Under the pieces are notes generated by a model. It was not told the origin of the DNA, made no database searches, and was given only the letters and a program-made list of their open reading frames with translations. Both the position numbers and the translations under genes were made by a program. Shown in pieces: positions 10,243-63,635 of a DNA stretch of 64,000 nucleotides. Positions within the stretch are counted from its first letter, which is position 1. Every line of letters starts with the position of its first letter. This DNA is from an uncultured Gemmatimonadota bacterium (GTDB taxonomy: Bacteria; SM23-81; DAOVCL01): positions 96,001-160,000 of the forward strand of contig CAZVGK010000002.1 of assembly GCA_964626665.1 (NCBI GenBank), read 5' to 3'.

Positions 10243-10296
10243 GGTAGCCGCAACCTTTAGGTTGCGAAAATACGCAGACTGAAGTCTGCGGCTACC
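10243..10296 (+). repeat. REP doublet (REPIN-like, GTAG family), left flank of RAYT
   Basis: GGTAGCCGCAACCTTTAGGTTGCG-aaaata-CGCAGACTGAAGTCTGCGGCTACC; two inverted GTAG-footed hairpins. Confidence 0.85.
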
Positions 10297-10314: not shown

Positions 10315-11354
10315 ATGAAACGTATGAATCCGAATACTTCCATTAGAGAGAAAGGACATCGGCTGCCCAGAGAGCTTTATCGAGGGCAAATAGCTGTTGC
10401 TTTCACGCTCTGTACTACACTTTTGCAAGATCTTGTTTTTTTGATAAACTTTTTTCAGGGTGCCTTAAGGGAATCTTCAGTTAAAGCTGAGAGGCGCAAG
10501 ATTGCTTCGTCGTTTCACTCCTCGCAATGACATATTCCTTTGCCTGTCATTGCGAGGCTTGCCTGAGCCGAAGCCCTGAACGAAGCGAGGTGGCAAGCCG
10601 AAGCAATCTCCTGCTTCTACTGCACTTTAATGCGAGTTACTATGGAGTGCGTCAACTCCTGTTGACGCATGCTGTGACAGGAGTCACAGCACTCCAAAAG
10701 GGGCTAAAGCCCTATCCACCCCAGCTAAAGCCGGGTAGAAAAAAGCTCACCCTGAGCTGTCAGACCCTCCCCGAGCCGTCAGAACCCCAATTCTGACGGC
10801 AGAAAGAGGTGGTGGCAGAATCGGGGTTCTGCCACCTCAACAAGAGAGATCGCAGTGAATAGGAACGTTTTCTTATCTATTCGTGTTCTATCAGTGTAAT
10901 CGGTGTAATCCGTGGCCCTTGTTTGGTTACGGCTTCGCTGCGCTGTGTAAAAGGTAAATTTTCTTTCCTGGAGAATCCGCAGATAGCAGAGATTTGCATC
11001 GAATTTTTAGAAGAGACTGCGTCCCTTTCTGGATGCATTGTGGTAGTATATCGTTTTATGCTTGATCATGTCCATTTTATTCTTTCTGGTATAAAAGACG
11101 ATGCTAACCTATGGGGAGCCGTAGTGCGTTTTAAACAAAAGACAGGGTTCTACCTGAAGAGACGCAATGGTCTATTTCAATGGCAAAAGGATTTTTACGA
11201 TCATATAATTCGTCAAAACGAAAATCTAATAACGCAGGTTAGATATATTCTGGATAATCCTGTACGGAAAGGATTAGTGAATAACTGGAATGATTATCCC
11301 CTTAAGGGGAGTATAGGCATTAGGTTAGAGGAAGTGTTGCGGGGATGTCTATAA
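10315..11354 (+). pseudogene. REP-associated tyrosine transposase (RAYT/TnpA-REP, Y1 HUH) split by an insertion
   Basis: N part 10315-10413 (HRLPRELY...AFTLC) joins in frame to 10947-11354 (VKGK...MLDHVH...WQKDFYDHIIR...YILDNPVRKGL), giving 168 aa; REP doublets on both sides. Confidence 0.88.
10414..10946. mobile_element. 533-bp non-autonomous insertion with asymmetric ends
   Basis: CTGT at both junctions (10410-10413, 10943-10946); precise removal restores the RAYT frame; both ends recur at 63461-63635. Confidence 0.8.
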
Positions 11355-11368
11355 CCGAGTATTACTAT

Positions 11369-11423
11369 GGTAGCCGCGACCTCGTAGGTTGCGAAAATAC
11401 GCAGACTGAAGTCTGCGGCTACC
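11369..11423 (+). repeat. REP doublet, right flank of RAYT
   Basis: Near-identical to 10243-10296. Confidence 0.85.
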
Positions 11424-63046: not shown

Positions 63047-63460
63047 AGAAAGGAAAAGGAAGGGCCAAATTACCCTTCTGTCAACCCATTTCTCCCAAAA
63101 TGTGAAAGTTCGTGGGAGATTCCATCTTCTCCGGACTCCTACATTCTCCCGGGTGTAATGGAAGGGTTTACTCGGGATTTGGGCTGTTATGTCAAGGGGA
63201 TGGGGGGAAGTTGCTGGAGAGAAAGGGATAACTTGCAAAGTGAGGTGATATCCCGATAAATCGGGATGTCGAGGTCAGTAACCCTCAAAACCGGTGGCCG
63301 CAGAAGTTTTTATGTGGGAATTAGCAAAGGTTGGTGCCTTGGTGTATTTACTTTATATTTTAGGCTCAGGGCCGAGGAGGGGACTGAAGTCACAAAGCCT
63401 GAAGGAACCAGTGGCAATAAGAGGCCATACTTTCTGAGTTAAGTTGATCGGGCGCCCTGT

Positions 63461-63635
63461 ACTACAATTTTGCAAGATATTGTTTTTTTTGACAAAGTTT
63501 TTCGTTCCAACCGCAAAAACGCTAAGATCGCAGAGGAAAGCAAAAGGGAAATAAAACGATTAGTTAAAAATCTTTAAACTTTGCGTCCTTTGCGACTTTG
63601 CGGTGAATTATTTGGCTGCGGCTCTGCCGCGCTAT
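63461..63635. mobile_element. Second, shorter member of the insertion family found inside RAYT
   Basis: CTGT|ACTACAATTTTGCAAGATATTG... and ...TTTGGCTGCGGCTCTGCCGCGCTAT; different interior (CGCAAAG-type repeats). Confidence 0.7.

Follow-up and report, generated by a model that had tools for sequence, protein, structure and literature searches.

To our knowledge, gene-less mobile elements without inverted ends have so far been tied to an enzyme mostly in the case of the IS200/IS605 insertion sequences (IS) and of the REP-associated tyrosine transposases (RAYTs; REP, repetitive extragenic palindrome), with occasional fragments of IS801. By design, IS200/IS605 elements such as IS608 and ISDra2 insert 3' of a tetranucleotide with no duplication and have unlike ends with subterminal hairpins, and in IS608-type elements one site of the TnpA transposase reads both ends. 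Helitrons, the rolling-circle transposons of eukaryotes, insert between A and T without duplication, begin with TC and end in CTRR after a hairpin. Here we describe a family of small gene-less mobile elements in an uncultured bacterium of the phylum Gemmatimonadota, starting from two copies found in a 64,000-nucleotide stretch of its genome (assembly GCA_964626665.1, contig CAZVGK010000002.1, positions 96,001 to 160,000; hereafter the window), the first of which interrupts a RAYT gene.

The described systems whose ends are built most like those of this family belong to the IS91 family. According to the excerpts of PMC13181058 and PMC3189936 that we used, IS91 elements have neither terminal inverted repeats (TIRs) nor target site duplications (TSDs) and insert beside a tetranucleotide adjacent to their origin end, oriIS. 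In the same excerpts oriIS bears one or two subterminal palindromes, while the termination end, terIS, bears one, beside which lies a cleavage tetranucleotide identical or similar to the target (PMC13181058, PMC3189936). These excerpts also report that IS91 mini-elements made of 89 and 82 bp of the ends move in trans, that miniature IS801 derivatives transpose, and that the IS91 target tetranucleotides all keep a T at position 2, with CTGT occurring once among 292 IS91 insertions (PMC13181058, PMC3189936). The family targets named in the excerpt of PMC13181058 are CTTG, GTTC and GTCC.

A precise insertion in a RAYT gene and the family it belongs to

Copy 1 lies inside a gene of the Y1/RAYT type. 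Its junctions read ...GCTTTCACGCTCTGT|ACTACAC...(533 bp)...GCTGCGCTGT|GTAAAAGG..., with CTGT both before the insert and as its last four bases. An open reading frame (ORF) at 10315-10530 encodes the RAYT portion MKRMNPNTSIREKGHRLPRELYRGQIAVAFTLC, which stops at ...AVAFTLC and then reads into the insert, and a second ORF at 10923-11354 matches Pfam Y1_Tnp with 25.2 bits (cut-off 23) and resumes the RAYT reading at VKGKFSFLEN. When positions 10414-10946 were excised in silico, both parts joined in frame as FTLC|VKGK. We compared the genome under study (G000) with two genus-mates (G001 and G002) and also searched four other genomes of the phylum. Contig C78 of G002 holds an ortholog of ~85% nucleotide identity that is unbroken (...AAFTLCVKGKFSFLEN..., FTLCVKGK), and the G000 flanks abut exactly there. 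Because G002 has the same gene uninterrupted, copy 1 is a real and precise insertion, and the G002 locus is a true empty site. A preliminary description of this DNA had proposed such an insertion, flanked by CTGT at both junctions, and had placed it at 10410-10946; the comparison with G002 bears the insertion out and leaves its right boundary in place, while the left one moves to 10414, as position 10410 includes the flanking CTGT.

REP doublets of the GGTAGCCGC... type bracket the RAYT gene on both sides, as they do for RAYT genes, and also flank the intact G002 ortholog. The ftsY-adjacent locus of G001 is without the whole RAYT gene. The RAYT unit, REP doublets included, is intact in G002 and missing at the same ftsY-adjacent locus of G001; therefore this unit has itself been gained or lost within the genus.

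The ends of copy 1 recur in the window. A left-end (LE) pattern matched twice, at 10414 and 63461, and so did a right-end (RE) pattern, at 10946 and 63635, where 100 shuffles gave an expectation of 0. Profiles of the ends (nhmmer) then found 69 LEs and 113 REs in G000 (3.17 Mb in 63 contigs). An RE lay downstream on the same strand of 43 of the 69 LEs, at spans of 160-742 bp in 41 cases; the remaining two spans measured 1287 bp, with an RE common to another copy, and 2150 bp. No partner was found within 8 kb for 26/69 LEs and 71/113 REs, some of which lie at contig ends. None of the 43 paired copies in G000 holds a transposase of the element's own between LE and RE.

At up to three mismatches we counted 49 LEs and 79 REs in G000, 34 and 38 in G001, and 1 and 3 in G002, whose sole LE is a relic, decayed and without a gene lying behind it. 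Neither end was found at this threshold in the four other genomes of the phylum, and reversed-pattern controls also gave 0. Among 401 genomes searched, the LE pattern occurred in three, all from this genus. Copies are present or absent at orthologous sites among the genus-mates: copy C54:7574-7758 is absent from G001 (C73) and G002 (C98), the empty site of G001 reading CCCCTGT|GCGG with a single CTGT, and copy C54:9434-9778 is absent from G002. The empty site of copy 2 gave no answer, its flanks lying on separate contigs in both G001 and G002. The elements of this family are small, mobile, gene-less and confined to the genus, and their two ends differ in function.

Public data gave a partial view of the locus. 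Twenty-four public runs are listed for it, with no RNA run listed as holding the locus; 20 runs contain at least half of the words sampled from it. In the Logan contigs of four salt-marsh runs the filled left junction was bridged in two runs and the right junction in all four. These contigs contained no join of 10413 to 10947 and no RE-to-LE joint (...GCGCTGT to ACTACAAT...), rare forms of either kind being invisible in assembled contigs.

Next, we studied the properties of the ends. The family consensus of the LE is ACTACAATCTTGCAAGATCTTGTTTTTTTGACAAAG..., in which the palindromes ATCTTGCAAGAT and CAAGATCTTG overlap and a run of T comes after them. The RE is built from a short array of decamers of the AATCYGTG type, continues with CCCTTGTTTGGTT and closes with a hairpin and GCTGT. 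The consensus of this hairpin is GCGGC-TTT-GCCGC (ACGGC-TTC-GCTGC at 10929-10941 in copy 1), and it sits five bases before the terminal CTGT or CTAT. No terminal inverted repeats were found, 0 of 18 inverted-repeat pairs in copy 1 and 0 of 3 in copy 2 joining the termini. Folding copy 2 as single-stranded DNA yielded z values of -1.4 and -1.35, which are uninformative.

The bases flanking 62 aligned LEs were C in 50, T in 58, G in 52 and T in 53, with a T one base further out in 41, and the first base flanking 90 aligned REs was G in 82. Across 42 pairs, the left flank was exactly CTGT in 25, where the background is 0.3% per position, and G followed the RE in 38; the RE itself ended in CTGT in 16 of these pairs, in CTAT in 6 and in CTGG in 5. 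Where either tetranucleotide deviates from CTGT, the flank and the RE terminus agreed in only 1 of 32 pairs, and the terminal CTRT is therefore borne by the element and is not a duplicated target. Insertion takes place between CTGT and G without target duplication, and conservation of the target extends over only ~6 bases (T-CTGT-G).

Taken together, these results uphold most of what the preliminary description had said about the element itself. The same ends do enclose a 175-bp unit at 63461-63635, they are not inverted repeats of each other, the subterminal hairpin of the right end is real, and both the non-autonomous character of the element and its preference for CTGT are confirmed. Unpaired ends, which that description had taken as a sign against its proposal, do occur in the numbers given above.

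Many copies lie in arrays of AATCTGTGG-type decamers, which are a source of the CTGT|G site. We also observed a larger repeat (~170 + 40 bp) with mutually inverted arrays of decamers as its outer parts (CCACAAGATT... / ...AATCTGTGGTTAT...GCATATTTTGGG). This repeat hosts the element at one fixed CTGT|G position, where it forms the left flanks of at least 10 LEs (among them C1:109506, C6:34735 and C29:597) and the right flanks of ~13 REs; one uninterrupted copy of it lies at C6:1281. The element may have inserted there repeatedly and site-specifically, or a composite may have been amplified.

Table 1. Features of the two copies and of the interrupted RAYT gene, in positions of the window
Feature	Position	Strand	Basis and remarks
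REP doublet (GGTAGCCGC... hairpins) upstream of RAYT	10243..10296	+	Sequence and flanks of the G002 ortholog; belongs to RAYT, not to the insert
RAYT 5' part (MKRMNPNTSIREKGHRLPRELYRGQIAVAFTLC)	10315..10413	+	ORF and alignment to the G002 gene; CTGT target at 10410-10413
Non-autonomous element, copy 1 (533 bp)	10414..10946	+	End patterns, profile matches, pairing, G002 empty site
Left end (LE), copy 1	10414..10469	+	nhmmer match C2:106414-106471, E 2.6e-12; 62 aligned LEs
Variable interior, copy 1	10470..10886	+	Mosaic of short repeat families; blastn tiling, many internal hairpins
Right end (RE), copy 1	10887..10946	+	nhmmer match C2:106889-106946, E 6.6e-14; 90 aligned REs
RAYT 3' part (VKGKFSFLEN...)	10947..11354	+	ORF, Pfam Y1_Tnp, G002 alignment
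REP doublet downstream of RAYT	11369..11423	+	Sequence reading
CTGT flank of copy 2	63457..63460	+	Sequence reading
Copy 2 (175 bp, of the 170-185-bp class)	63461..63635	+	End patterns; LE, miniature cassette, RE ending in CTAT

Variable interiors, nested elements and candidate enzymes

The interior of copy 1 is tiled, in separate segments, by 450 blastn matches from the genome, and the short repeat families that compose it are unrelated to each other and are also found alone elsewhere. Among them are REP-like hairpins and a 28-nt hairpin (10811-10838) of which many exact copies exist at other places. In the 170-185-bp class an LE of ~45 bp and an RE of ~35 bp enclose a miniature whose inverted arms are of the CTTTGCG type (in copy 2 at 63510-63535 and 63579-63604), and sequence matching this interior lies on either side of a PDDEXK_3 gene (C15:61338-61688). 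Further copies contain REP-like hairpins with a TTCTAC foot. The interiors are nested insertions of other small repeats, and this nesting explains why conserved ends surround unrelated interiors.

The 2150-bp copy (C4:20506-22655; locus L001 1007-3156, minus strand) encloses a gene with DEDD_Tnp_IS110 and Transposase_20 domains and a single in-frame TAA, which is a Y codon in an intact ortholog, 87% identical, on the metagenome contig L028. This gene was considered as the autonomous parent of the family and rejected. The L028 contig and contig ends of G002 share only positions ~190-1997 with the locus and have their own ends there, so the IS110 element is a passenger nested in a miniature element. 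It measures ~1.8 kb and is bounded by ...CT-GGTATAAT and GCTGGT-CT-ACAA..., which are ends and a target of its own. The IS110-like enzyme that the preliminary description had offered as an alternative is not supported, this passenger being the lone IS110 gene found between an LE and an RE.

In the left non-coding region of this C4 element we noted an extended -10 (TGGTATAAT) as well as a stem interrupted by an internal loop. The 5' side of the loop holds GGAGCCCCT, a 9/9 match to the element's own left target plus the CT core, and the 3' side holds GTAG, complementary to the CTAC on the right; from its sequence, the loop looks like a readable bridge-RNA target loop that would be aimed at the CTAC foot of REP hairpins. 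Rfam gave no match on the C4 region at E up to 1, and the leader folded as RNA had a z value of -1.2, which is uninformative. A search for distant IS110 relatives in genome contigs and metagenome scans retrieved one close ortholog and others of at most 49% identity, and was silent on the LE and RE.

Several LE/RE copies are broken open by a second multi-copy element, of which we found at least eight ends of each kind, all at contig ends and with the interior unassembled. One side of it lies at ends of contigs C5, C35, C11, C16, C41, C43 (both ends) and C50, and the other side at ends of C15, C18, C20 (both ends), C25, C27, C33 and C39. Its ends (...TCTACAAT / CCCTTGTATATT...) resemble those of the C4 IS110 element and adjoin REP hairpins of the GGACAGG...CCTGTCC type. 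Its uninterrupted target is presumably TCCCTACAA, which has 62 occurrences.

The genome was then searched for enzymes that could act on the ends. There are eight Y1_Tnp matches in G000, and each of the seven that we inspected is flanked by its own, different inverted repeats, none of them LE- or RE-like. Neither TnpB (PF07282) nor serine recombinases (Resolvase) matched anywhere in G000, and no link to the element emerged for the 16 tyrosine recombinase matches. Two IS110 genes are assembled in G000, one of them on C36, and their ends are unrelated to LE and RE. PF13366 and the four-helix-bundle family PF05635 have 8 and 16 matches, respectively, and all 11 of the 11 PF05635 genes inspected have their own repeat arms of 7-10 nt.

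The only match to Y2_Tnp in the seven genomes of the phylum is a truncated IS91-type gene at C21:56668-57348, the other six genomes giving 0. Of this gene the Zn finger and the first part of Y2_Tnp, as far as the HUH motif, are left, and an ATP-grasp-like gene follows. Relatives of this fragment were matched in 19/401 genomes, all at 39% identity or less except for G000's own. We read the flanks of eight IS91-type loci; in one of them (L088), TGCAAGAT stands near a GGGGCTTTGCCCC hairpin upstream of the gene, which we treat as a possible coincidence.

A gene at C58:3349-4350 encodes Y1_Tnp fused to the C-terminal helix-turn-helix of DnaA (DnaA_C) and is bracketed by GGGTCAGGTCTTCATTCTA inverted repeats. 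The gene is followed by GGATTTTGTGT repeats, which are DnaA-box-like. On the C58 contig nhmmer detected LE or RE only at E > 1.

Proposed rolling-circle mobilisation in trans and competing explanations

The mobiliser of these elements is most likely an HUH enzyme of the IS91 kind, judging by the design of the ends. We tentatively favour mobilisation in trans by such a single-strand nuclease of the rolling-circle type because the architecture of LE and RE matches that of IS91 family ends. As in the IS91, IS801 and IS1294 mini-elements covered by the excerpts of PMC13181058 and PMC3189936, there are no TIRs or TSDs, a tetranucleotide abuts the palindrome-bearing end, and the other end combines a G+C stem-loop with a target-like tetranucleotide; in that family, too, short derivatives consisting only of ends move in trans (PMC13181058, PMC3189936). 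The IS91-type gene fragment in G000 and a modest strand bias of LE-bearing copies with respect to local GC skew (33 vs 15, p = 0.013) also speak for such an enzyme.

Under the IS91-like mechanism, the LE, with its subterminal palindromes directly abutting the target tetranucleotide, would be the oriIS-like origin end. The RE would be the terIS-like termination end, its G+C hairpin standing five bases before a terminal CTGT or CTAT that would mimic the target. The enzyme would nick after the CTGT of the left flank and after the terminal CTRT, and one strand would be freed as a circle and pasted after another CTGT. Preferred landing sites would be stretches of DNA that are single-stranded or prone to form hairpins, for instance the decamer arrays of AATCTGTGG around many copies. 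The transposase gene would have been lost or would lie in an unassembled part of the genome, only the truncated IS91-type gene being visible in G000. Of the HUH-type enzyme put forward in the preliminary description, the fit of the ends is retained and sharpened towards the rolling-circle type, while no intact partner gene was found.

Several observations weigh against an IS91-like enzyme. The likeness of LE and RE to IS91 ends is architectural, with no sequence homology, and the CTGT abutting the LE has the tetranucleotide form and the T at position 2 of the IS91 family, yet is no known family target. Our searches detected an intact Y2/IS91 transposase neither in the three genomes of the genus (G000, G001 and G002) nor in the four others of the phylum, no Y2/IS91-type gene is enclosed by LE and RE in G000 or among the matches at up to three mismatches in G001 and G002, and neither end lies near the truncated C21 gene. 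The RE hairpin shows no covariation across the 90 copies, with A:T pairs in 3/450 cells and a perfect stem in 31/90. The strand bias of the LE copies is confounded with gene orientation (skew vs gene strand, r = 0.90). REs exceed LEs (113 vs 69), and one-ended transposition of IS91 predicts the opposite, a conserved origin with variable far ends. Moreover, many solo REs terminate decamer-armed cassettes of the 'cacgg' type, and the RE module may belong to a different system.

Those cassettes form the basis of one competing explanation, in which LE and RE are modules of small repeat-armed cassettes, with decamer or heptamer arrays and four-helix-bundle or PD-(D/E)XK genes, and are moved by the machinery of the cassettes or by recombination between arrays. 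The subterminal AATCYGTG decamer array of the RE resembles the 'cacgg' arms in which many solo REs end, at least 10 LEs and ~13 REs share one fixed position in the larger inverted-decamer-array repeat, the 170-185-bp class has a miniature of the C15 PDDEXK_3 cassette as its interior, and the genome offers the PF05635 and PF13366 matches, with repeat arms at every PF05635 gene inspected. We nevertheless hold this origin to be unlikely, given that the RAYT insert and copy 2 have no outer arms and inserted as bare LE...RE units, that the two ends are not inverted copies of one another, and that no cassette gene lies between any LE and RE. It is more improbable still, and in our judgement very much so, that the insert is immobile as a unit and reached the RAYT gene by illegitimate recombination or gene conversion from a repeat-rich locus. 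A mosaic of repeats such as the interior of copy 1 could promote recombination, and no excision or circle junction was seen; against this, three independent presence/absence sites have their boundaries at the same LE and RE termini, and 42 pairs share these termini and the flanking CTGT|G across unrelated contexts.

Two other types of enzyme could act in trans on such ends, and we give each of them only a slim chance. A Y1 HUH transposase, like the TnpA of IS200/IS605 or a RAYT, would peel single strands off and paste them 3' of CTGT. This would account for insertion 3' of a tetranucleotide with no duplication, for the unlike ends and for their subterminal hairpins, and a gene-less family beside a single-copy enzyme is the REPIN-RAYT pattern, for which the eight Y1_Tnp matches would be candidates. 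The hairpins of LE and RE are, however, unrelated in sequence (ATCTTGCAAGAT vs GCGGCTTTGCCGC), the seven inspected Y1 genes each have their own repeats, TnpB has no match, and one RAYT gene is itself a victim of the insertion. The other candidate is a DEDD recombinase of the IS110 type guided in trans by a bridge RNA, with the CT of CTGT as core, GCCGCG-CT-GTACTACAAT as donor and AAT-CT-GTGG as target. In this genome at least two IS110-family elements work with a CT core (the nested C4 element and the unassembled one, in at least eight copies), CT lies within both junctions of the miniature element, and RE joined to LE would give TTGCGG-16 nt-TACAAT, a predicted junction-promoter-like arrangement. 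By the rules given in the excerpt of PMC11208160, the GGAGCCCCT loop of the C4 element matches its own left target and core, with GTAG for the right; that excerpt also reports that a 22-bp donor and a bridge RNA in trans suffice for IS621. Set against this, the conserved target of ~6 bases falls short of the 11-14 expected for guide pairing, no guide-like GCCGCGCT ... GTAGTACAG locus occurs outside the elements among the matches listed (40 of 66 loose ones), and the elements are too short and too variable to hold a bridge RNA. In both IS110 elements the donors are different and the target is the CTAC foot of REP hairpins (TCCCTACAA), and G002 holds several C4-type IS110 copies, seen as contig ends, but almost no miniature elements.

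Relation to known elements and significance

Compared with the IS91 family, the elements described here differ in having no linked Y2 transposase, a CTGT target in place of CTTG, GTTC or GTCC, and ends with no homology to those of the family; their copy number is also far higher (tens per genome), and the ends in excess are of the termination type, not of the origin type. With non-autonomous Helitrons they have in common conserved unlike ends, unrelated interiors, a hairpin before a 3' CTRR-like motif (here CTRT) and the lack of duplication, whereas the bacterial host, the T|G site instead of A|T, the 5' AC... instead of TC and the absence of a Rep/helicase gene set them apart. IS200/IS605 elements and their gene-less derivatives, the palindrome-associated transposable elements (PATEs), likewise insert 3' of a target of 4-5 nt without duplication and have unlike hairpin ends; here the hairpins of the two ends are unrelated, and there is no TnpA or TnpB partner.

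With the high-copy, gene-less and lineage-specific REP/REPIN-RAYT systems and TIR-type MITEs (miniature inverted-repeat transposable elements), the family shares the possibility that its enzyme is encoded elsewhere. LE and RE are not GTAG-footed hairpin doublets, and no cognate was found among the flanks of seven Y1 genes; MITEs, which are driven by DDE transposases, have the TIRs and the TSD that are missing here. With no TIRs, no TSD and no GTAG-footed doublets, the element is therefore, strictly speaking, not a REPIN, nor is it a MITE. IS110/IS621 elements, as described in the excerpt of PMC11208160, also lack TIRs, have a short CT core at both junctions and a liking for repeated targets, and can act in trans on a minimal donor; unlike them, the present elements have no recombinase or bridge RNA inside, conserve ~6 target bases and gave no matching guides among the matches listed. 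In a literature search that was not systematic, we found no description of a high-copy gene-less family of the IS91 or IS110 type like this one.

There is a small but appreciable chance that LE...RE units represent a new kind of bacterial element. Such a Helitron-like 'shell' of high copy number would move in single-stranded form to a place after CTGT, mobilised either by the machinery of the repeat-armed mini-cassettes or by an enzyme that belongs to none of the catalogued IS families, and would serve as a preferred landing pad for REPs, miniatures of nuclease cassettes and IS110 elements.

Finally, gene-less elements without inverted ends are easily overlooked, and this uncultured salt-marsh lineage provides a clean high-copy family of them. 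Its boundaries are exact, its CTGT|G target is sharply defined, three of its empty sites are known, and two of the three genus-mates hold tens of copies each. The RAYT gene inactivated by copy 1 is a case of one selfish element disabling the enzyme of another, and the family as a whole shows how other small mobile repeats accumulate in LE...RE shells. Were it driven by an HUH enzyme, of the IS91 type or another, the family would be a bacterial counterpart of the swarms of non-autonomous Helitrons; otherwise it would point to an undescribed route of mobilisation.

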